Shown here: positions 2,686 through 13,347 of the stretch, one piece after another | Position numbering within the stretch: position 1 is the stretch's first letter | How the letters are laid out: every line of letters starts with the position of its first letter | Source of the DNA: a virus | Virus genome (UHGV): UHGV-0358078 | Length of the DNA: 13,471 bases | Strand: one strand, 5' to 3' | Notes under the pieces: model-generated | Seen by the model: the letters and a program-made list of their open reading frames with translations, nothing else | What the model was told of the DNA's origin: nothing | Databases searched by the model: none | Translations under genes and position numbers: made by a program

Positions 2686-3180
2686 ATGAACTTCACTAGA
2701 CTTGATTACACTAACGAATTGGTTGACAAAGAAAAATACAAATTCACTGTTGACTTGGGTTACGGATTACTGGACGTAGAAAAAGATGTTCTGCACAAAG
2801 AATTCCGTGAGCAATTCGGTGCTTTGTTCTGCGCAGGTTTCCGCAGAAACACCATTGATATCGGTTATAGCGCAACAGCGTATACCGATGAAGAAATGTT
2901 TAAGCTGGTAACACAGATTGTCGGAACGCGTGGAGCCAAACGACTCAATTATTCCAACGAACTTGTTTCGAAAGAACATTACAAGTTCACCGTTAGACTA
3001 CCTGTTCGCCTCACAGAAGAAGATAAGAACATCCTCTATAAAGCCCTTCAAACCGAATTCGGTAAAGCGCTCAAAGTAGGGTTCCGTAATCGTAGTATCG
3101 ATATCGGAATTAGTGTGGATGTGTGTAGTGACGATGACCTTTACGAATTAGTTTCGGAAGTTATCGGAAAACATCTCTAA
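2686..3180 (+). CDS. Hypothetical protein (164 aa) built from two tandem ~76-aa repeats
   Basis: ORF track starts at GTG 2635 inside a hairpin; the in-frame ATG at 2686 has AGGAG (2673-2677) with an 8-nt spacer. Residues 5-80 and 86-161 align colinearly (RLDYTNELVDKEKYKFTV... vs RLNYSNELVSKEHYKFTV...; ...NTIDIGYS... vs ...RSIDIGIS...). Confidence 0.75.
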   Translation: MNFTRLDYTNELVDKEKYKFTVDLGYGLLDVEKDVLHKEFREQFGALFCAGFRRNTIDIGYSATAYTDEEMFKLVTQIVGTRGAKRLNYSNELVSKEHYKFTVRLPVRLTEEDKNILYKALQTEFGKALKVGFRNRSIDIGISVDVCSDDDLYELVSEVIGKHL

Positions 3181-3220: not shown

Positions 3221-3694
3221 ATGTTTAGCTTAGAAATCAACAACAACGTTCATGCCGCTTTCCATTCAGTAGAAAAAACCTATAAAATTAAAGATCTGTT
3301 TACTGGCAGAAGCGATGCTTTTTCGCTGATTAAGAATGGATGGAGAAAAAGCAAAGAGCTGAAACGTGATTCAAACCTTTACATTATTGAACGTTTAACT
3401 GTAACCGACAACCTTGTCACTGCACGTTATGACTTTGTTGTAATGGACGCTTTCATCCCGTTAGACAAACTGGTTATCTTGGCTGACAATGGGGAACGCT
3501 ACGAGGCGGGCGAGAACGGTGAACGTTCATTTACTAATGACGGTAAACTAAAAGTTCGCCATTCTGTAATGGCAGTTTGCTACGATGGTGAATGGTTAAG
3601 ATCTCTGAATAAAGGATTGGATTTGATTGACGCCGATGATTTAGAAAATTTCGCCGATGTTTTCTCCAACTATTTGTTTGAATATAAGTGGTGA
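3221..3694 (+). CDS. Hypothetical protein (157 aa)
   Basis: ATG at 3221 with AAGGA 7 nt upstream. Contains a short peptide repeat (DNGERY / ENGERS). No recognised domain. Confidence 0.75.
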   Translation: MFSLEINNNVHAAFHSVEKTYKIKDLFTGRSDAFSLIKNGWRKSKELKRDSNLYIIERLTVTDNLVTARYDFVVMDAFIPLDKLVILADNGERYEAGENGERSFTNDGKLKVRHSVMAVCYDGEWLRSLNKGLDLIDADDLENFADVFSNYLFEYKW

Positions 3695-3699
3695 GTTCG

Positions 3700-4131
3700 A
3701 TGAGAAAAGAACTAAAATCAGAGTTACGTGATTACATTCGTAAATACCCAGCCAGTATTCCGGTACTGGCTTCACTCTCTTTATCGGGTATGGACCTTAA
3801 TACCCTAACGGTAGAAAAATTCCACGAAGTGGTGAAGTCGTCGTATCAAATTGTTACCGATATGTCAGTGCGGAAACGTGCTGACTACCCAGACGGTGAT
3901 TTCGGTACAGAGATGTTCACGGACTACGCAGTTGCGTATCTGATGGGACGTCACTTTATCGATAAACTCAATACGGCTGTAGAAGGAGAAACCGTTACGG
4001 AAATTGTCAATGCTTGGCAACAACGTATTGTGAGTGACGCTTACTGTCGTCAAGCCTTAAAGAAAATGTCGGCGGTAGCATTAACCAATGACCAACGTGC
4101 TTTAGAGTTCCTTAAGCACAACTACGAATAA
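3700..4131 (+). CDS. Hypothetical protein (143 aa), paralog of the gene at 4997..5428
   Basis: ORF track starts at GTG 3688; the in-frame ATG at 3700 has a GGTGAG SD-like sequence upstream. Same length as, and colinear with, the protein at 4997 (LKSELRDYIRKYPASIPVLA vs LKDDIRNYIRNNPIALGVLA; ...ADYPDGDFGTEM vs ...EEYPVGELGDTM; ...LEFLKHNYE vs ...LMYLAHNVR). Confidence 0.75.
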   Translation: MRKELKSELRDYIRKYPASIPVLASLSLSGMDLNTLTVEKFHEVVKSSYQIVTDMSVRKRADYPDGDFGTEMFTDYAVAYLMGRHFIDKLNTAVEGETVTEIVNAWQQRIVSDAYCRQALKKMSAVALTNDQRALEFLKHNYE

Positions 4132-4152
4132 TTTACCAAAAGGAAAAGTACC

Positions 4153-4920
4153 ATGTTTAATATTGAGATTACCCCACTCGTTAAAACTGAAATCCGTCCG
4201 GTTCCTGAAGCACAGTTACTCGATCAACTTTATCGTATATTCCTGGATAAAGGTGTACATTTCCGTGTAGAGCAGGTCAATGATGAAAGCATCGTGTTCT
4301 ACTGGACTCACAGCAACGATTATCTTTGCGATACTATCGCGAAAGAAATTGGTGAGTTGCTCAACCCAGCAGAAGGTACCACGAACGCCTGGGTAGAAAC
4401 GACCGAGACTGAACAACCGAAAGCCGAGGCCGAAAAACAGCAGAAAGACGAACCGCACGTCCTCTGGTACGAAGGTAAGAAGATTAAGGAAATTAAAGAA
4501 GCGTTAGAGACCCTCTATCACGACGATTTAGGCATTTACTGGGATAACAGCAAGCTCGTCGTTCGATTGAAGAAAGACGATCGTAACCTCATGGAAGATA
4601 TTCGTTCTATCGTTAAGCTGATCGATAACGACGCTGTTCGACTTATTTCGATTCATGGTATCGGAAAAGATACCGCTGATGAACTCATGCGTGTGGCTGT
4701 TCACGAACACAAGGAGAAAATTCATCAATCCGTTTACAAAGGTGAAACGCTCACCGTTTTGATCGACAACGATGTTGAGGTTTTCAAATCATTAACGAAC
4801 CTTTTGCGAAATGTTTCAACGGATTCTTATATCGAAAAAACACGTGCCTTGCTTCTCGAAAAGCTTTTTAATATTTACAACAAAGATTGCGATTGTCCTA
4901 ATTGTCAAAAACGTCGTTAA
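4153..4920 (+). CDS. Hypothetical protein (255 aa) with helix-hairpin-helix-like motif and C-terminal Cys cluster
   Basis: ATG at 4153 with AAGGA upstream. Internal LISIHGIGKDTADELM fits the HhH pattern (hxxhxGhGxxxAxxh) of non-specific DNA-binding modules. Acidic, K/E/Q-rich linker. C-terminal CDCPNC. Followed by a 16-bp palindrome and a terminator. Confidence 0.8.
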   Translation: MFNIEITPLVKTEIRPVPEAQLLDQLYRIFLDKGVHFRVEQVNDESIVFYWTHSNDYLCDTIAKEIGELLNPAEGTTNAWVETTETEQPKAEAEKQQKDEPHVLWYEGKKIKEIKEALETLYHDDLGIYWDNSKLVVRLKKDDRNLMEDIRSIVKLIDNDAVRLISIHGIGKDTADELMRVAVHEHKEKIHQSVYKGETLTVLIDNDVEVFKSLTNLLRNVSTDSYIEKTRALLLEKLFNIYNKDCDCPNCQKRR

Positions 4921-4928
4921 TTAACGAC
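4913..4928. repeat. Perfect 16-bp palindrome GTCGTTAATTAACGAC across the stop codon of gene 4153..4920
   Basis: Positions 4913-4928 read identically on both strands. Lies 18 nt upstream of the terminator stem. Confidence 0.8.
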
Positions 4929-4945
4929 ATTCTAAATTCAACCAA

Positions 4946-4978
4946 GGGGTGGTAATCCACCCCTCTATTATTGTATTT
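4946..4978 (+). terminator. Intrinsic terminator candidate
   Basis: Perfect 7-bp GC-rich stem GGGGTGG (4946-4952) / CCACCCC (4957-4963) with loop TAAT, followed by a T-rich tract (tctattattgtattt). Confidence 0.7.
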
Positions 4979-4979
4979 A

Positions 4980-4995
4980 CCTAAAGGAGCATTAA
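4980..4995 (+). promoter_or_regulatory. Conserved 16-nt translation-initiation block CCTAAAGGAGCATTAA, copy 2
   Basis: Identical to 476-491; immediately upstream of the ATG at 4997 and just downstream of the terminator at 4946-4978. Confidence 0.45.
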
Positions 4996-4996
4996 A

Positions 4997-5428
4997 ATGT
5001 TTTTCGTATTAAAAGATGATATCCGTAACTACATTCGTAACAATCCGATTGCGCTGGGCGTTTTAGCAGGTTTCTGTCGTCCAAATACTGACTTCGATTT
5101 AGTTAAGTTAGAAGAATATCAAGAAATTGTGAACACTACCTACATGCACATCTGTAGCTGGGGTAAACGTCCTCGTGAAGAGTACCCTGTGGGTGAGTTA
5201 GGTGACACCATGCACCGTGACCAGAACCTGATGCACGAATTCGTTGAATACACACTGGAAAATCTTAACTATCCGCTCCTGGTCGACACTGTACCAGAAA
5301 TGGTTGACGAATGGTTTAAACGTGTTTATAGCGATCCTACCGCCAACAAGTTACTGAACCAGATGTCACAAACTTCTCGTGACATCGACACTCGTACGCT
5401 GATGTACTTAGCACACAACGTTCGCTAA
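4997..5428 (+). CDS. Hypothetical protein (143 aa), paralog of the gene at 3700..4131
   Basis: ATG at 4997 with AGGAG inside the conserved 16-nt block 4980-4995. Paralogy to 3700..4131 described there. Followed by a strong UUCG-tetraloop terminator. Confidence 0.8.
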   Translation: MFFVLKDDIRNYIRNNPIALGVLAGFCRPNTDFDLVKLEEYQEIVNTTYMHICSWGKRPREEYPVGELGDTMHRDQNLMHEFVEYTLENLNYPLLVDTVPEMVDEWFKRVYSDPTANKLLNQMSQTSRDIDTRTLMYLAHNVR

Positions 5429-5435
5429 CCTCTCT

Positions 5436-5490
5436 CCGCTATAGGCTTCGGTCTATAGCGGAATTAATTTTCTTTCCCTTTTCTTTTTTT
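5436..5490 (+). terminator. Intrinsic terminator, 11-bp stem with UUCG tetraloop
   Basis: ccgctataggc (5436-5446), loop ttcg (5447-5450), gtctatagcgg (5451-5461), one G-U pair. Followed by a long T-rich tract (…ttttctttcccttttctttttttt). Lies 8 nt after the stop of gene 4997..5428. Confidence 0.8.
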
Positions 5491-5597: not shown

Positions 5598-6446
5598 ATG
5601 TCTCTTACGTCAAAACAGAAACTGCTAAAACTCATCAACACTGAAAACAATATTAGTCCACCGTTGACTTTCAGTGATGTTGATATCGGAGAACCTACTG
5701 GTACTGGGGTTGATACCCAGGTGGTTCTGACCTCTAAACTCAAAGGCGATGAGTCTACTACTTTAACAGTGACTTACCACCGTCGTAACTTACCTGACTA
5801 CCTAACAGGTGAGTTGGTATTCGGTAACGACAATGTGGTAACCGCATCCGATTTGCTTAATGCGATTAACGCAAAATACAACCTAAATATTTTACCCTCG
5901 GATATCGTTGACGCAAAAGTTGAAGGTGAAACCCATCAGCTTACCGCTAACGAGAAATCTTACGAGTGGTGCGGTGTAGTAACACTTACGCTGCGTGATC
6001 CTATTGACCTGACTGAACTGTTACCAGTTACTCAATTAGAGAATCTGGTAGAGTATCCGTCTACTAAGAAAGGTAACGCTGCGGTTTATTCTCACCCGAT
6101 TGATTTCACCGCAGAAAAAGATTACCTTGACCCGATTACTATCAACGACACCGTCGACTTAGTAGAGTTAGCCACTAAACTGGCTAACGTCGTTGATGAG
6201 AAATGGGTAAGTGTACCTAAAAACGCGGCTAACAACCTGTACGGTGCTAAAGTTATTTACGATGGCCCAACCGCAGGTTACGAAGGCGCAAATACGAAGT
6301 TCACTCGTGTGCTGGTACTGACTCTCAGCCCGTTGTGTTCTAACCTGACCGGTAATCTGTTAATCCACTTTAACGGTACCGATCGTCCGAAGTCGAAGAT
6401 TGAATTAGCACAGACTAATCCGGTCTTACCGGGATTCTTAGATTAA
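5598..6446 (+). CDS. Paralog-family protein (282 aa), possible virion/structural protein
   Basis: First ATG after a 169-nt intergenic region; weak SD (GTGAG). N-terminal ~70 aa (…LINTENNISPPLTFSDVDIGEPTG…TQVVLTSKLKGDESTTLTVTYHRRNL) is colinear with the N-termini of the genes at 6460, 9626 and 10234. T/V/N-rich, acidic composition. The structural role is inference only. Confidence 0.8.
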   Translation: MSLTSKQKLLKLINTENNISPPLTFSDVDIGEPTGTGVDTQVVLTSKLKGDESTTLTVTYHRRNLPDYLTGELVFGNDNVVTASDLLNAINAKYNLNILPSDIVDAKVEGETHQLTANEKSYEWCGVVTLTLRDPIDLTELLPVTQLENLVEYPSTKKGNAAVYSHPIDFTAEKDYLDPITINDTVDLVELATKLANVVDEKWVSVPKNAANNLYGAKVIYDGPTAGYEGANTKFTRVLVLTLSPLCSNLTGNLLIHFNGTDRPKSKIELAQTNPVLPGFLD

Positions 6447-6459
6447 GAGGATTACAGTA

Positions 6460-6957
6460 ATGACCAATCAAGAAACTATCTTCGACCTTATTAAAAAGGC
6501 TAACCCAGACGCTGAGTTCGACACCACCAAGGTCACGCTGGGTGACCCGGTCGTAACCACCGGTACGTACAATACCGAAATCACAGTTGCGTCAATTAAG
6601 AATCTCGGTTACACTAACGAACAAACGTTCCAGTATAACCGCATTGACGCAGGTTTGTATTTCCTGAACGTATTACCGAAACTGTTAGTGGAGTCTGCAA
6701 CGACTACCGCTGACTTACTGCCCGTAATTAACGAACAGTACAGCCTAACCCTTACAGAAGACGATGTATGGGTAGAACAGGTCGGTGAATTACCGCTGGA
6801 CGGCAGTGCAATCGAGCACGGCATTTTCTTCCGTCCTGAATGTTTAACCTGGGTAGGCGGTTTTACGGTGCGCGTTGCACGTAAACCTGCTGAAGATGTT
6901 GAACCTGCGCCAAAAGCAGCTAAAGCACGTACAACTCGTGCACGAAAATCCAAGTAA
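6460..6957 (+). CDS. Paralog-family protein (165 aa) with basic, A/K/R-rich C-terminal tail
   Basis: ATG at 6460 with AAGAGGA upstream. N-terminus (…LIKKANPDAEFDTTKVTLGDPVVT…NTEITVASIKNLGYTNEQTFQYNRID) matches the family motif. C-terminal PAPKAAKARTTRARKSK. Followed by a strong terminator. Confidence 0.8.
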   Translation: MTNQETIFDLIKKANPDAEFDTTKVTLGDPVVTTGTYNTEITVASIKNLGYTNEQTFQYNRIDAGLYFLNVLPKLLVESATTTADLLPVINEQYSLTLTEDDVWVEQVGELPLDGSAIEHGIFFRPECLTWVGGFTVRVARKPAEDVEPAPKAAKARTTRARKSK

Positions 6958-7021: not shown

Positions 7022-7612
7022 ATGGCTGAACGTTGGACTAAAGAAGGTATTATTGAAACCAAAACGGATTTAGAAGGCGGGTACGTCAACGACCCTGACG
7101 ACTTAGGTGCAGAAACGAACCACGGTATCACGGTAACGACTGCACGTGAGTACGGTTATAAAGGGAAAATGAAAGACCTTACCCGTGCTCAAGCTTTTGA
7201 CATTTACGATCGTGGTTGGTGGAAGAAACTCAAACTCGATGAGATTTTCGCTATCTCGCCTTTACTGGCTGACCGGATGTTTGATTTCGGAATTAACGCA
7301 GGTCGTGCCAACTGCGTGAAATCGCTACAGCGTATTCTCAACGTGTTGAACAACGAAGGTAAACTCTACGCGGACATCGATGCTGACGGTGGAATGGGGC
7401 CTAAAACGCTGGGTGCGTTGAACGCGTACCTGAAATACCGTAAAGATGAAGGGCTAAGCATTTTAATCTTTGCGTTAATCTCGCACCAAGTAACTTACTA
7501 CACGGAAATCTCCGAGAAACGTAAGCGAAACGAGAAATACACCTACGGCTGGTACGGCCGCGTGTTCAGAGAAATGGCAGATTATGCGGTAAAAGCGGGG
7601 TTAGTAAAATGA
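7022..7612 (+). CDS. Endolysin, GH108-type N-terminal domain plus PG_binding_3-like C-terminal domain
   Basis: ATG at 7022 with GGGAG upstream. N-terminal EGGYVNDPDDLGAETNHGIT matches the GH108 signature (EGGY…DPxD…GGxTxxGIT). Downstream FDFGINAGR…LQRIL…DADGGMGPKTLGAL matches the usual C-terminal peptidoglycan-binding domain of this family. No N-terminal signal or SAR segment. Confidence 0.85.
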   Translation: MAERWTKEGIIETKTDLEGGYVNDPDDLGAETNHGITVTTAREYGYKGKMKDLTRAQAFDIYDRGWWKKLKLDEIFAISPLLADRMFDFGINAGRANCVKSLQRILNVLNNEGKLYADIDADGGMGPKTLGALNAYLKYRKDEGLSILIFALISHQVTYYTEISEKRKRNEKYTYGWYGRVFREMADYAVKAGLVK

Positions 7613-7713
7613 ACTGGTTTGCTAAACTCTTAGCGTTATTGTGGAAAGCGTTAACGTCTGGTCGAAAACGTAAAGACGAAAAACGTGGGCAAGAATTCTT
7701 CTGGTTTTTGTAA
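7609..7713 (+). CDS. Candidate small ORF (34 aa), amphipathic N-terminus and basic centre; not in the ORF track
   Basis: ATG at 7609 overlaps the endolysin stop (ATGA at 7609-7612); GGGG lies 8 nt upstream. Translation MNWFAKLLALLWKALTSGRKRKDEKRGQEFFWFL, stop TAA 7711-7713. Fills the gap between the endolysin and the next gene. Too short for a conventional transmembrane holin. Confidence 0.35.
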   Translation: MNWFAKLLALLWKALTSGRKRKDEKRGQEFFWFL

Positions 7714-8978: not shown

Positions 8979-9003
8979 TACCCTCCTGCTAAGCAGGAGG
9001 GTA
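8979..9003. terminator. Bidirectional terminator between convergent genes
   Basis: Stem taccctcctgc (8979-8989) / gcaggagggta (8993-9003) with a 3-5 nt loop. A/T-rich on both sides (aaataaacc upstream, tttattatt downstream), so it is followed by a U-tract in either direction. Confidence 0.75.
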
Positions 9004-9007
9004 TTTA

Positions 9008-9487
9008 TTATTCTACCGGGTGCAGCATAGTTCCGGTGTCTGGGATACTGCCTTCGTGACATCTGAAGAACGTTACGCCTTTACCTTCACCCGTTTTGTA
9101 GTTGACGGTGGAATACGCAAACGTTGGGGTTTTCGACAGTAACCCGTTTACACGGTAATAGCGCTCACCGGTAACGACGTTTAAGTTACCGTCCACCTTA
9201 CCTAACAGGTCTTTATAAAGTTGCGGAGATTCAATTTTACCTTCGTCCCATGTAGCGACCCAATTCGCCCCTGTATCCATGACTAACACCGAAAGGGGCA
9301 TCAGTTTTAGGCTAGACGGTACCGGTTTAAAATCAGCGAATTCTTGAGAAGCACCTGTACAGGTGTAAATGACCATATCGTGTTGGTCAACAGGTACGGT
9401 GGAGAACTGACCTTCTGCGTTCGGCTGAATAGCACAACCTGCCAATGTCATTACAAAAGCAACGACCACGAGAATGCGTTTTAGCAT
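9008..9487 (-). CDS. Predicted outer-membrane lipoprotein (159 aa)
   Basis: N-terminus MLKRILVVVAFVMTLAGC has a basic n-region, hydrophobic core and lipobox L-A-G-C, with Ala at +2 (no Asp retention signal). SD-like GGGTGAG upstream on the minus strand. Opposite in orientation to all neighbouring genes and followed by a bidirectional terminator. Confidence 0.8.
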   Translation of the reverse strand: MLKRILVVVAFVMTLAGCAIQPNAEGQFSTVPVDQHDMVIYTCTGASQEFADFKPVPSSLKLMPLSVLVMDTGANWVATWDEGKIESPQLYKDLLGKVDGNLNVVTGERYYRVNGLLSKTPTFAYSTVNYKTGEGKGVTFFRCHEGSIPDTGTMLHPVE

Positions 9488-9625
9488 AATCTCACCCTTA
9501 TTAAAATTAAGAAAAATTATTTTTTCAGGTTAGCGCCTACTGCCAACCGTCATATCTATATTTTAGGAAATGTCTAAAATAACTTTCTTATGCAATCCAC
9601 CCCTACCACTTACGAGGTAAAAAAG
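9488..9625. promoter_or_regulatory. Divergent intergenic region, probable promoter region for the lipoprotein gene (minus) and gene 9626 (plus)
   Basis: 138-nt AT-rich gap between divergently oriented starts. On the minus strand, TTGGCA (plus-strand tgccaa 9541-9546) is followed about 17 nt later by an A-rich -10-like hexamer. This is a weak match, not a confident sigma-70 promoter. Confidence 0.3.
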
Positions 9626-10162
9626 ATGGCTAAAGCCTTCAAACAACAGCTCATCGAAGCTGTAATTGCTAAAAACTCAGACACCGCTTCTAATCTGACG
9701 GTTGGTGATGTCGATTTTGGCGCTGTTGCTGAGTTCAGCGGAGACGCTGGTCGTAACACCAAAATTACGCTGACCGCCAAGGCAGAAAGCCAGAACTTCA
9801 AAGGCGAGAAAGAATTCCATTATATCCGTCTGGCTTCTCAAGACCTGATCGGTGCCAAAGCTTACGAACAAGCCGGTAGCCTCGAACTGGAAAACTCGGT
9901 CATTGTAACCAAACTGAACGAAGAAATGGTTACTAAAGGTTATGTCGATGACGAGTTTGCAGAGAGCGAACTGTCCATTGAGAAAACTGACGGGGATAGT
10001 GGTGCTAAAGTTTACACTGTCAAAGTAAGCGAAGGCCACATCAAATTCCTGGCTGGTACCATTGCCACCTTCACTTATTCCAACCCAGCTCCTGAGAAGG
10101 TAGCTCTGGACGGTCTGGAAGGTGAACTTGATGGCTTTACTGCACCGGGTGTCGGTGGCTAA
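9626..10162 (+). CDS. Paralog-family protein (178 aa), possible virion/structural protein
   Basis: ORF track starts at ATG 9590 with no SD. The in-frame ATG at 9626 has GAGG with an 8-nt spacer and gives an N-terminus colinear with the paralog at 10234 (MAKAFKQQLIEAVIAKN… vs MAATNQMMLVALYNAAN…). Both end in ELDGFTA. Followed by a G12-containing hairpin. Confidence 0.8.
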   Translation: MAKAFKQQLIEAVIAKNSDTASNLTVGDVDFGAVAEFSGDAGRNTKITLTAKAESQNFKGEKEFHYIRLASQDLIGAKAYEQAGSLELENSVIVTKLNEEMVTKGYVDDEFAESELSIEKTDGDSGAKVYTVKVSEGHIKFLAGTIATFTYSNPAPEKVALDGLEGELDGFTAPGVGG

Positions 10163-10171
10163 GTAAATTAA

Positions 10172-10198
10172 ATCGGGGGGGGGGGGACCTCCCCCGAT
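10172..10198 (+). terminator. Terminator-like hairpin containing a G12 homopolymer
   Basis: atcgggggggg (10172-10182) pairs with cctcccccgat (10188-10198), one G-U pair; followed by atttctc…tattttt. Starts 10 nt after the stop of gene 9626..10162. Confidence 0.6.
10175..10186. repeat. G12 homopolymer tract
   Basis: Twelve consecutive G at 10175-10186, inside the hairpin after gene 9626..10162. Confidence 0.9.
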
Positions 10199-10233: not shown

Positions 10234-10764
10234 ATGGCCGCTACTAACCAGATGATGTTGGTCGCGCTTTATAATGCTGCTAACACTGAGCTACCACATC
10301 AGATTACTGATAAAGAAGTGTCCTTTGGTCTCCCTACTGCGCTGGAAGGCGAAAGTAAGAATACCAAAGTTACCATGACTGCACTACCGGGTTCTGAGAA
10401 TTTCAAAGGCGAAATCGAACTGCATTACGATCGTCTGGAGCCAGGTGTTGTAGGGCGTATTGAACTAACTGACGATCTGTCTCGTTGGGAAGATCAAAAC
10501 GAATTGCGCGCATGGTTACAATATTACATTAATAAAGTTAAACCGGACGATGCTATTCATCCAGCGGACGTTTCTTATTCTACCGAAGACCAGAAAGACG
10601 AACATGAAAACGTCACTCTGCGTACCGTGACGTGCACCGTTACCGAAAAGAACCTCCGTTATAAACCAGGTGTAATGGCAACTTTCGTAATTACACCGAA
10701 GGTTGTTGATAATCGTATTGACCTGGCCACCACCAACGGTGAGTTGGACGGTTTTACTGCTTAA
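10234..10764 (+). CDS. Paralog-family protein (176 aa), possible virion/structural protein
   Basis: ATG at 10234 with AAGGA 9 nt upstream. Shares the family motifs (…VSFGLPTALEGESKNTKVTMTALPGSENFKGEIELHYDRL…) and the C-terminal GELDGFTA. Followed by an 11-bp bidirectional terminator. Confidence 0.8.
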   Translation: MAATNQMMLVALYNAANTELPHQITDKEVSFGLPTALEGESKNTKVTMTALPGSENFKGEIELHYDRLEPGVVGRIELTDDLSRWEDQNELRAWLQYYINKVKPDDAIHPADVSYSTEDQKDEHENVTLRTVTCTVTEKNLRYKPGVMATFVITPKVVDNRIDLATTNGELDGFTA

Positions 10765-10833: not shown

Positions 10834-11508
10834 TTATTCTAATCCCATTTCCAGTGCAAGAGCACGGATAGTGTCGTAGTCACGCTGTTCAGCGTACTGA
10901 CGAATTTCACTTTTCTGGGCAGACATCGCGTTGTGTAGCTGTTGGTCACGTTTCACAATAGCCGCCAGCAACGTTTTACATTGTTCCAGCGTAAACGGTT
11001 CTATACGTGTATTCGACGTGTCCAACCAATAATCCGGTGCAGTTTCAGACTGGATATATTGGCCCAGCATCTGACGAGAGGTTTCGTCAGCTTGGAAATG
11101 ACGACCGTCAACTTCGATATAACCGTGACGCTGGTCTTCGTATCGGTGTTCAATTTCCAACATGATTTTCTGGATATCTAAATAGATATAGCGAGACGTC
11201 GAGCGCATATTCGAACGAATCTCATCCAGATCAATCTCCAGAACGTCAGTAATGAATTCTTTTGCTTTATTCAGTGTAAACTTCGACTCGATAGGAGACA
11301 TTTCGTAAGTTTGCATCTGAGCTAAAGCTTCTTCATCACTCATCCCTTCAATCAACTTATAGTGCAGTAAAGCACAGAACCCCGTACGTCCACGGTCTTC
11401 GTTACCTACACGCTCCATGTAGTTACCGTGACGGTCAATTGGGAGATCGTGAGCGAAATAACGCGCTCGAATCTCTTCTTTCGTTAAGCTTTTGTTAGAA
11501 GCAGACAT
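10834..11508 (-). CDS. Hypothetical protein (224 aa), last gene of the radical SAM operon
   Basis: ATG at 11508 (minus) with GGAG 7 nt upstream; overlaps the upstream gene's stop by 25 nt. Stop sits next to the terminator hairpin at 10803-10829. No motif recognised. Confidence 0.75.
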   Translation of the reverse strand: MSASNKSLTKEEIRARYFAHDLPIDRHGNYMERVGNEDRGRTGFCALLHYKLIEGMSDEEALAQMQTYEMSPIESKFTLNKAKEFITDVLEIDLDEIRSNMRSTSRYIYLDIQKIMLEIEHRYEDQRHGYIEVDGRHFQADETSRQMLGQYIQSETAPDYWLDTSNTRIEPFTLEQCKTLLAAIVKRDQQLHNAMSAQKSEIRQYAEQRDYDTIRALALEMGLE

Positions 11509-12050
11509 TCTTCTTCTCCAACCATACCTAATTCTTGCAGCAAGCCAAAATCAATCAACTGGAAGGTTTCAGAGAGATCGTTTGACCACACCACGTTTGC
11601 AATGTCGCGTTCTTCATCCGTTAACTGTGGTAACACATTTTCGTTGAACGTCTGATGCTCTACGTAATACGCATCGTAGATAGACGTGGAACGTAAGCAA
11701 CGGATCGGCATACGCGGGAAAGACACCGCTAATGCAGCAATAGATGCGCTACTCGGATTCTCCGCAGAATAACGAAGCAATTCGATCTTGTGGCGTGGAT
11801 AGTCCAGTACGCGTTGCTCGAAACCCGGATTACGTTTTTCGATTTCCACAACGGACTCATGGCCTGTTTCTGTACAGTAAACGGGAATCATCACGTTTAG
11901 CCCGTACTTAATTAACAGGGGTTTAATCTCATCTGTAAAGTCTTCGCCGGGGATAATGGCGTGGACGTTATAGAGTTTATGTTTGCGCAGAAAACGCTCA
12001 ACCAGGTGGAGTTTACGCTTCGTAAAATTGTGGATCAGAATTGATTTCAT
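11484..12050 (-). CDS. Hypothetical protein (188 aa), radical SAM operon
   Basis: ORF track begins at ATG 12074 with no SD. The in-frame ATG at 12050 is preceded by GAGG with a 6-nt spacer, which also shortens the overlap with the radical SAM gene to 38 nt. No P-loop or PP-loop motif. Function unknown. Confidence 0.7.
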   Translation of the reverse strand: MKSILIHNFTKRKLHLVERFLRKHKLYNVHAIIPGEDFTDEIKPLLIKYGLNVMIPVYCTETGHESVVEIEKRNPGFEQRVLDYPRHKIELLRYSAENPSSASIAALAVSFPRMPIRCLRSTSIYDAYYVEHQTFNENVLPQLTDEERDIANVVWSNDLSETFQLIDFGLLQELGMVGEEECLLLTKA

Positions 12051-13347
12051 TATTTGCCTCAGTAGGTTGTGCATTTAACGCACGTTTAGCTTGCTCACGC
12101 TCACGCGTACATTTCGGACAGTAACAAACAGACGAATCGTGCAGAGACGATGCGTGGACGGTACCCGTACGTTGACGCCAGTATTCTGCCGCCATCAGTT
12201 TTGCAGTCGTCCAACCACATTGACGTCGTTCAGCGTGGTACGCCTTACGGTCTTCCAGTGTCCCTTCACCGTTTTCGTAGGAAGCGGCTGCACAGCTCCC
12301 ACAACCGTGTTTCATCGGACAGCCTAAGCACGTTTCAGGATAGTTGGTGTATTGCGTCTGAATCTCTTCCAGCAGTTTCCCGCCGTCTAAGCTAACAAAC
12401 TCACGACCGACTAACTCAAACACCGCAGAGCGTGACGTTACCGTTGACATGAATCGGTTACAACCATACACCTTACGGTCAAAACCTAAGCAGGTCATAA
12501 ACGTCAACGTCCCACAGAACGGACGTAAACGTTCAGGGTTATAACGGTGCGTGTCGTCGTACAGCAGTTTATCACGCCAATCTGGGTCCCAAATCTGACG
12601 GAAATCCAGACCTTCAGGAATGATGTGGGACAACACGTTACGTGGATTGGTGTGCAGCCCTTTCTCAATCCAATAATCCATCACCTCGATCATCTGCAAC
12701 GCAATATCCGTTGCCATGCTCCGTGGAAGGATATCTTCGTACGTCACGTTACCTGAAATCGTACCGCCACCGGCAATATCAATTAACGACTTCATACTCG
12801 CCGCGTAATGCGGTAAGGTTTCGGTCGTGAAGGTTGCCTTGATACCCAGTTCGGCAATCCCCACTTCTTTTAAGTAGTTATAGCCACGAACGGCGGCTTC
12901 GTAAGAACCCTGACGCGTCGTTGTAAAAATACGATAGCGGTCATGAACTTCTGGCAACCCGTCGATAGACACACCGATGGAGAGTTTGTCTTTCCAACGC
13001 TCAACAATCTCACGGTTTAACGGACGGTCTAACAACGTCCCGTTCGTGGAGATACTGAACATATACGGACGATTATGCTCCTTACACAGCTGTTCTGCGG
13101 TTTCAAACGCCGCTAACAACAGTTTCGGTTGCATAAAAGGTTCGCCACCGATGATATCAATAATGACGTCGATGTTCGGAATATCTTTATCACGCTCAAA
13201 ACAGGCGTGTAAGAAATCCACGATATCCGCCGCTTTGTTATTACGCGGATACTTACGTTCGTAACAATACTCACAATCTAAGTTACAAGACAGGTTCGTT
13301 ACCACCTGGTAAGTACGTTGTGAACGTGGTGCTTCATTATTGCTCAT
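12013..13347 (-). CDS. Radical SAM enzyme with C-terminal SPASM-type Cys-rich domain (anSME-like architecture)
   Basis: CNLDCEYC (CX3CX2C) at residues 21-28; IGGEPF SAM-binding motif; STNGTLL and SIDG…HDRYR motifs typical of SPASM-family radical SAM enzymes. C-terminal clusters CGTLTFMTC…C and CLGCPMKHGCGSC (CX2CX5CX2C), plus a further CYCPKC. ATG at 13347 with AGGA 9 nt upstream and an in-frame stop three codons upstream. Confidence 0.9.
   Translation of the reverse strand: MSNNEAPRSQRTYQVVTNLSCNLDCEYCYERKYPRNNKAADIVDFLHACFERDKDIPNIDVIIDIIGGEPFMQPKLLLAAFETAEQLCKEHNRPYMFSISTNGTLLDRPLNREIVERWKDKLSIGVSIDGLPEVHDRYRIFTTTRQGSYEAAVRGYNYLKEVGIAELGIKATFTTETLPHYAASMKSLIDIAGGGTISGNVTYEDILPRSMATDIALQMIEVMDYWIEKGLHTNPRNVLSHIIPEGLDFRQIWDPDWRDKLLYDDTHRYNPERLRPFCGTLTFMTCLGFDRKVYGCNRFMSTVTSRSAVFELVGREFVSLDGGKLLEEIQTQYTNYPETCLGCPMKHGCGSCAAASYENGEGTLEDRKAYHAERRQCGWTTAKLMAAEYWRQRTGTVHASSLHDSSVCYCPKCTREREQAKRALNAQPTEANNEINSDPQFYEA

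Follow-up and report, generated by a model that had tools for sequence, protein, structure and literature searches.

The 13,471-nucleotide stretch of the virus genome UHGV-0358078 analysed here (hereafter the window) carries two + strand genes of identical length, paralog A (3700-4131) and paralog B (4997-5428), on either side of a longer gene of the same strand, X (4153-4920). The locus raises the question of what such a trio might do and whether its members act together. The original prediction was a three-gene module, with X as a helix-hairpin-helix (HhH) DNA-binding factor and the two 143-residue proteins as its partners. Our analyses support the paralogy and the conserved gene order; they indicate that the HhH motif is probably a sequence look-alike, and they suggest, with a probability that we put at roughly 45%, that A-X-B is a non-structural accessory cassette in which X is a modular adaptor, with a role in host takeover, counter-defence or phage-phage exclusion.

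The window had no nucleotide match among 50,697 phage records, the set used for all phage-record searches (nucleotide and tblastn). It is 96% identical to Escherichia coli p98232-contig_4 (NZ_CP173450.1, 221,873 bp), deposited as a circular 'plasmid', and 93% identical to an Enterobacter ludwigii plasmid (NZ_CP134650.1, 222,441 bp), also deposited as circular. The core proteins of NZ_CP173450.1 that we compared, including the large terminase, the tail sheath, the RNA polymerase beta subunits and the prohead protease, are 77-87% identical to those of Salmonella phage SPN3US, which marks the element as a 'Seoul-like' persistent jumbo phage. These comparisons indicate that the window is part of a Seoul-like (SPN3US-like) jumbo phage genome of ~222 kb. 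The remaining window content as identified with Pfam, PHROG and NCBIfam, namely four DUF7941 proteins, a GH108 endolysin, DUF1353, DUF4376 and radical SAM/SPASM proteins, fits this origin. The two records, labelled plasmids in RefSeq or PLSDB, correspond to complete SPN3US-like jumbo phage genomes. Relatives of the window are known only as ~222-230-kb contigs from Enterobacteriaceae isolates, some of them deposited as circular plasmids, and from metagenomes; homologs of the X protein are found on 220-230-kb contigs in Salmonella, Shigella and E. coli assemblies as well as in metagenomes. Seoul-like persistent jumbo phages have been found mostly in Salmonella isolates, and Seoulvirus has been placed in the nucleus-forming Chimalliviridae (bioRxiv 10.1101/2024.12.31.630880).

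The products of A and B are acidic (pI 6.3 and 5.0, respectively), soluble and devoid of membrane segments. BLASTP aligned them without gaps over 137 residues, 42 of which are identical (31%, E=5e-27), and both matched the 140-position phrog_8484 profile (A, residues 5-129, E=8e-15; B, residues 2-129, E=8.3e-18). This alignment and the common profile match place their paralogy far beyond chance, so that the duplication originally proposed for the genes at 3700 and 4997 holds under formal alignment. We took the ATG at 3700 as the start of A, with its stop at 4131; a GTG at 3688 is a possible alternative start, without a Shine-Dalgarno sequence. Hidden Markov model (HMM) matches, conserved residues, predicted fold and genomic position all assign A and B to the phrog_8484/SPN3US gp135 family. 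Residues M1, L5, P17, R60, P64, G69, D75, D113, S124 and R133 are invariant in all 22 family sequences, and these positions include the loop motif R-x-x-[YF]-P-x-G-[ED]-x-G.

A profile search for the family in 5.8 billion clusters returned 31 of them, all from the clade of the window, from SPN3US-like phages or from Erwinia jumbo phages (phiEaH2, Stratton, Asesino). The gp135-type gene is present in single copy in SPN3US (SPN3US_0135) and in phiEaH2 (AFQ96601), and the similar-sized neighbours of these two genes do not align with them. SPN3US gp129, gp130 and gp132 and the phiEaH2 neighbours were considered as hidden paralogs or as relatives of X; the comparison showed neither. As SPN3US and the Erwinia jumbo phages have only one copy of the gene, the duplication is lineage-specific. 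In a neighbour-joining tree, the A clade is sister to the B clade with the single-copy phage genes as outgroup (30-33% identity between A and B, 20-26% between each of them and the outgroup), which places the duplication within the lineage, before the clade diversified. We regard A and B as true, old paralogs. The AlphaFold2 model of the paralogs consists of seven helices and is confident, with a predicted local distance difference test score (pLDDT) of 92.5 and a predicted template modelling score (pTM) of 0.84. A profile search against PDB sequences gave no match, and a Foldseek search of BFVD with the model retrieved only uncharacterised Erwinia jumbo-phage proteins, with template modelling (TM) scores of 0.85-0.87. 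The predicted all-alpha fold is apparently new, without a relative among solved structures.

The open reading frame of X encodes an orphan protein of 255 residues (29.8 kDa, pI 5.2). Among 1.84 billion representative proteins, an exhaustive HMMER search yielded no more than four clusters at 50% identity, all from this clade, and tblastn against the phage records gave no match. X belongs to no PHROG, NCBIfam or PADLOC family, and for the three proteins together, Pfam, PHROG, NCBIfam and PADLOC scans yielded nothing significant beyond phrog_8484, with HHH_5 below threshold. As a profile search with the repeat module of X added no relatives outside the clade, these searches depict X as a clade-restricted orphan.

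Four segments can be distinguished in X. Residues 1-72 (4369 being the first nucleotide of the next segment; 4153-4368) form a conserved N-terminal domain of predicted ferredoxin/ACT-like beta-alpha-beta-beta-alpha topology, with strands at residues 9-15, 37-43 and 46-52 and helices at 20-33 and 56-70 (pLDDT 80-85). This domain is nearly invariant in all X architectures, with a ratio of nonsynonymous to synonymous polymorphism (pN/pS) of 0.24. It is followed by an acidic linker predicted to be disordered (residues 73-100, 4369-4452; pI 4.3, pLDDT 37-54), the length of which varies by insertions and deletions among homologs. Residues 101-243 (4453-4881) make up an exchangeable module of type A, which comprises a second ferredoxin-like domain, a helix, a beta-hairpin and a long helix. 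The protein ends with a conserved basic Cys-triad tail, KDCDCPNCQKRR (residues 244-255, 4882-4917), the family motif of which, C-[DN]-C-[PS]-x-C-Q-K-x-R, is common to all architectures. The CDCPNC string corresponds to residues 246-251; C246, C248 and C251 are invariant in 28 homologs, as are K253 and R255; the model of this tail is of low confidence. All three features first pointed out in this protein, namely the HhH-like string, an acidic linker and CDCPNC at the C-terminus, are thus present in its sequence.

In the AlphaFold2 model of X (pLDDT 72.6, pTM 0.45, domain cores ~80), a beta-alpha-beta-beta-alpha(-beta) domain spans residues 9-85 and a second one residues 103-168, with a disordered linker at 74-99. 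After the second domain, a helix (172-189) and a long helix (208-243) enclose a beta-hairpin (190-205), and the low-confidence tail ends the chain. The predicted structure has the beta-alpha-beta-beta-alpha-beta topology of ACT and ferredoxin-like domains; no ACT family profile matched X in the Pfam and NCBIfam scans. X homologs come in three architectures: the N-domain with module A, as in the window (251-260 residues), the N-domain with module B (247 residues), and the N-domain with both (366-399 residues). Modules A and B share 30% identity (E=7e-18) and measure 135-150 residues each, with one or two of them per protein. Comparisons of the three beta-alpha-beta-beta-alpha units of X with hhalign did not reveal significant mutual sequence repeats. 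We also considered that the upstream gene, A, X and B might result from the tandem duplication of a two-gene unit; this possibility gained no support from hhalign, in which the family of the upstream gene did not align significantly with the X N-domain (E=0.17).

Does X then harbour an HhH motif? The string LISIHGIGKDTADELM (4642-4689, residues 164-179) fits the pattern h-x-x-h-x-G-h-G-x-x-x-A-x-x-h-h, and a JGI pipeline has named one X homolog 'endonuclease III-like'. X scores 16.6 bits (E=0.011) against Pfam HHH_5 (PF14520), below the gathering cut-off of 27 bits; similar sub-threshold matches to HHH_5 are found in 18 of 28 family members (best E=1.2e-4), and to HHH_2 in four. Across homologous modules, the glycines of the hairpin are not conserved: GIG is replaced by TIG, QIG, NIE, DIG or VRK, and the truly invariant residues at this position are A175 and the following D176. 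Acidic residues surround the motif (GKDTADE, GEEDAD) in a protein of acidic pI, which is the opposite of what a phosphate-binding hairpin requires. Finally, in a region modelled with a pLDDT of ~80, residues 162-168 form the fourth strand of the ferredoxin-like sheet, followed by a turn and helix 172-189, rather than two helices joined by a G-h-G hairpin, and this strand agrees with the beta-branched sequence LTITTIG found in module B. Taken together, the score below the Pfam cut-off, the unconserved glycines, the acidic surroundings and the modelled strand-turn-helix make DNA binding by X unlikely, and the HhH of the original prediction probably represents a look-alike.

Gene order and alleles were compared between the window and 12 relatives of its clade. 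Each of these 13 genomes shows A, X and B in this order, so that the arrangement is indeed conserved in related phages. A has two allele types, ~98% and ~79% identical, and so does B (89-100% and 57-59%), while X occurs in many forms that are 44-100% identical. These alleles are found in various combinations: in relative L006, an X at 95% is paired with a B at 57%; in L005, an X at 44% with a B at 93%; and in L015, an A of the ~79% type with an X at 92%. This indicates that A, X and B assort independently within the clade. Outside it, SPN3US and phiEaH2 have one paralog each and no X, and the A/B family can thus do without X as a partner. Neither observation fits the idea that A and B are the two paralogous partners of X.

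Allele divergence down to 44-59% occurs between flanks that are mostly 88-99% identical, and the A-X-B region is a recombination hot spot. The slot directly upstream of A (3221-3694, +) is also an allelic replacement site, occupied by either a 157-residue gene or an unrelated gene of 254-263 residues. The alleles of the latter (L003 6228-6992, L006 3928-4719) are 24-47% identical, and it overlaps the start of paralog A. The ratios of nonsynonymous to synonymous substitution rates (dN/dS, NG86) are 0.15 for A, 0.37 for X and 0.08 for B, compared with 0.04-0.12 for three neighbouring genes; X evolves 3-9 times faster than its neighbours. These values indicate that A, X and B are all real genes under purifying selection.

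We favour the reading of A-X-B as a non-structural accessory cassette. A, X and B are all acidic and have no membrane segment. The A/B family is only ~23% identical to its SPN3US counterpart, compared with ~80% for core genes, and together with the allele divergence and the alternative upstream genes this argues for an accessory, fast-evolving character. The targets of the three products would be proteins or small ligands and not DNA. X may work as a modular adaptor, the constant N-domain and tail of which would perform a fixed job (docking, oligomerisation or metal binding), with the swappable modules setting target specificity; A and B would act as independent small binders and not as allele-matched partners of X. 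Host takeover, counter-defence and phage-phage exclusion are plausible arenas, in the long-lived infections typical of the clade. Several points weigh against this proposal. The PADLOC scan detected no known defence or counter-defence family, an absence that is uninformative. The X model is of only moderate confidence and was built on a shallow alignment, and ferredoxin-like folds are so widespread that a function cannot be read from them. Nor is there a sign of positive selection, dN/dS being below 1 everywhere. Lastly, the invariant A-X-B order could reflect a functional link that allele-assortment analysis does not see. A bolder version of the same reading, which strikes us as improbable, holds that X, with or without A and B, sets the carrier-state lifestyle or the superinfection or defence specificity of these phages: its modules would recognise different host or rival-phage targets, the N-domain and Cys tail would deliver a constant activity, and the paralogs would represent a new, jumbo-phage-specific all-alpha fold family. 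The X family is restricted to the subclade known from bacterial isolates and metagenomes, with 0 occurrences in the 50,697 phage-isolate records.

Genomic position raises an alternative, namely that A, X and B serve as chaperones or scaffolds in the morphogenesis or assembly of either the DUF7941 head proteins encoded next to them or the tail fibres encoded upstream. The phrog_8484 gene lies shortly upstream of the DUF7941 virion-protein array and on the same strand in SPN3US, phiEaH2, the window and its 12 relatives, with one or two genes in between in the first two and none in the clade of the window. Structural and lysis genes abound in this region, tail fibres are encoded a few kb upstream, and the copy number of SPN3US head paralog families is known to vary (PMC5694885). 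An hmmsearch against PDB sequences also matched positions 83-157 of X with Mu tail fibre assembly protein U (5yvq_B, E=0.0095, 75 residues), but this match is marginal, concerns only a beta-hairpin region and has no Pfam or PHROG support. Moreover, X alleles do not track the adjacent DUF7941 gene, which is 98-99% identical where X is 52-74% identical, X is missing from SPN3US and the Erwinia phages, where the same virion proteins are assembled, and the Pfam, PHROG and NCBIfam scans detected no chaperone family. In favour of a non-structural role of the paralogs, the SPN3US virion mass-spectrometry (MS) tables that we searched contain no gp135 row, which is a weak check, and a literature search found no functional or virion data on gp135. 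We consider an assembly role unlikely, yet the most credible of the alternatives.

Two further alternatives concern X itself. The consensus fit, the sub-threshold HHH_5 and HHH_2 matches, the pipeline name and the invariant gene order would all be accounted for if X were an HhH DNA-binding factor in a three-protein complex with A and B. However, in addition to the arguments developed above on scores, glycines and charge, X has a single motif without a partner motif, and the A-family genes that exist without X, like the independent assortment of alleles, speak against such a complex, which we hold to be quite improbable. The other alternative is that the CxC(P/S)xC tail makes X metal-, Fe-S- or redox-active, or a substrate or partner of the phage radical SAM/SPASM enzymes. 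The Cys triad is invariant in every architecture, and in the 221,873-bp relative CxCxxC occurs in only two real genes, those for X and for the radical SAM/SPASM protein. In the window the latter is a 444-residue protein (12013-13347, - strand) that resembles maturases of Cys-rich peptides (NCBIfam, E ~1e-36, far below the family cut-offs) and has near its C-terminus the sequence CYCPKCTRER, with the same CxCPxC-[QT]-[KR] pattern as the X tail. Nevertheless, ~7 kb separates the two genes, which lie on opposite strands, one relative has Ser instead of Pro in the tail, the tail model is of low confidence, and the similarity of two such short motifs could be a coincidence. X also differs from the Cys-rich precursors modified by radical SAM/SPASM enzymes, being a folded protein of 255 residues with a single triad of cysteines, without repeated motif or leader-core organisation, and coded by a gene that is not beside that of the maturase. 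This last possibility thus seems to us slightly more remote still than an HhH complex.

Also in line with the accessory cassette, our preferred reading, B has a strong ribosome-binding site of its own and hairpins on both sides. The gap between X and B contains a terminator-like GC hairpin (4945-4964, +) of 8 pairs, 6 of them GC, followed by CTATTATTGT, and a strong terminator-like hairpin of 12 pairs with a GCTTCGGT-type loop, followed by ATTAATTTTC, is found 3' of B (5435-5462, +). The 16-nt Shine-Dalgarno block CCTAAAGGAGCATTAA, which contains the sequence AAGGAG, precedes B at 4980-4995 (+), and an identical copy is located at 476-491, before gene 492, exactly as first noted. These are the only two copies in the window, compared with 0.12 expected by chance even with 3 mismatches, and the two sites differ by one base in their distance to the ATG. 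Relatives keep the 16-mer before the 171-residue gene, and some of them also before B. In NZ_CP173450.1 another copy (L010 25936-25951, - strand) lies before a 746-residue RNA polymerase beta-like gene, and the block is therefore not a specific link between B and gene 492, as its sharing might have suggested; it is better described as a recurrent strong ribosome-binding block that serves at least three unrelated genes. A sigma-70 promoter scan of the window found sites no more commonly than in shuffled sequence.

The genes located between 10 and 3694 have no Pfam match or match only PHROGs of unknown function, in keeping with their initial description as anonymous small genes. One of them codes for a 164-residue protein (2686-3180, +) with an internal tandem duplication (residues 5-80 and 86-161, 43% identical, E=3e-24). 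It was considered as sharing a module with X and shows no detectable relation to it. Downstream of B, the four DUF7941 genes (5598-6446, 6460-6957, 9590-10162 and 10234-10764) correspond to the SPN3US head 'paralog family B' (PMC5694885); two of their products are full length or nearly so, the others being shorter, and the gene at 9590-10162 varies between relatives (63-88% identity). A terminator-like hairpin between the last two (10172-10198) includes 12 consecutive G (10175-10186), a homopolymer so long that slippage or sequencing error is a risk. A 34-residue open reading frame, MNWFAKLLALLWKALTSGRKRKDEKRGQEFFWFL (7609-7713, +), overlaps the stop codon of the GH108 endolysin gene and is called as a gene in several relatives; with its hydrophobic N-terminus and basic C-terminus, its product may be a lysis accessory peptide. 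The gene at 9008-9487 (-; phrog_9559, unknown function) is the sole opposite-strand gene inside the + strand block. Its product starts with MLKRILVVVAFVMTLAGC, which resembles a signal peptide with a lipobox, and is thus likely a lipoprotein. A bidirectional terminator-like hairpin (8979-9003) lies 3' of this gene, the layout of which is moron-like and could fit superinfection exclusion. The radical SAM gene overlaps the next gene (11484-12074) by 62 nt at its 3' end, and in a complete relative (L008 28603-30724) it comes after a second radical SAM gene. The window gave no matches in Rfam and tRNA scans.

The persistence of SPN3US-like jumbo phages in clinical Salmonella, E. coli and Shigella isolates has been recognised only recently, and we know of no genetic basis for it. 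The A-X-B cassette is one of few features that separate the isolate-borne subclade from its lytic relatives, and if it acts in host interaction it would offer a handle on persistence or host specificity. X also provides a case of domain shuffling at a recombination hot spot. The paralog family was already known as a PHROG, and gene duplication as a trait of giant phages; the X orphan family is new. As they stand, A, X and B are well-delimited conserved hypothetical proteins with one apparently new fold among them, and nothing about them is surprising for a jumbo phage accessory region. Their value lies in this fold, in the link to persistent Seoul-like phages and in the correction of the HhH mis-call, which automated pipelines make as well.

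How do these proteins compare with known systems? X shares with the HhH domains of the HHH_5 and HHH_2 families, such as those of endonuclease III and RuvA domain II, the 16-residue pattern L-x-x-I-x-G-I-G-x-x-x-A-x-x-L-M and sub-threshold HMM scores; it differs from them by its unconserved glycines, its acidity, the placement of the pattern in a strand-turn-helix of an alpha/beta domain and the lack of a second motif. The tandem ACT domains of SerB, GcvR-like proteins, SpoT and aspartokinase have the same predicted topology as residues 9-85 and 103-168 of X. Unlike them, X has neither an ACT profile match nor a ligand-binding signature, it carries in addition the helix, beta-hairpin and long-helix extension and the Cys-triad tail, and the fold is too widespread to argue for homology. 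The A/B pair is reminiscent of the SPN3US virion paralog families A, B and C (PMC5694885), which also arose by lineage-specific duplications and vary in copy number; those are families of virion proteins, whereas the A/B family has only two members here and gp135 is absent from the MS tables searched. The closest counterparts of A and B are SPN3US gp135 (YP_009153429), phiEaH2 AFQ96601 and Stratton STRATTON_153, proteins of 142-148 residues that belong to the same HMM family, with the same invariant residues, a predicted seven-helix fold (TM 0.85-0.87) and the same position before the DUF7941 array. At 20-26% identity, these homologs are coded by single-copy genes, whereas in the phage of the window the gene is duplicated, with an unrelated gene between the copies.

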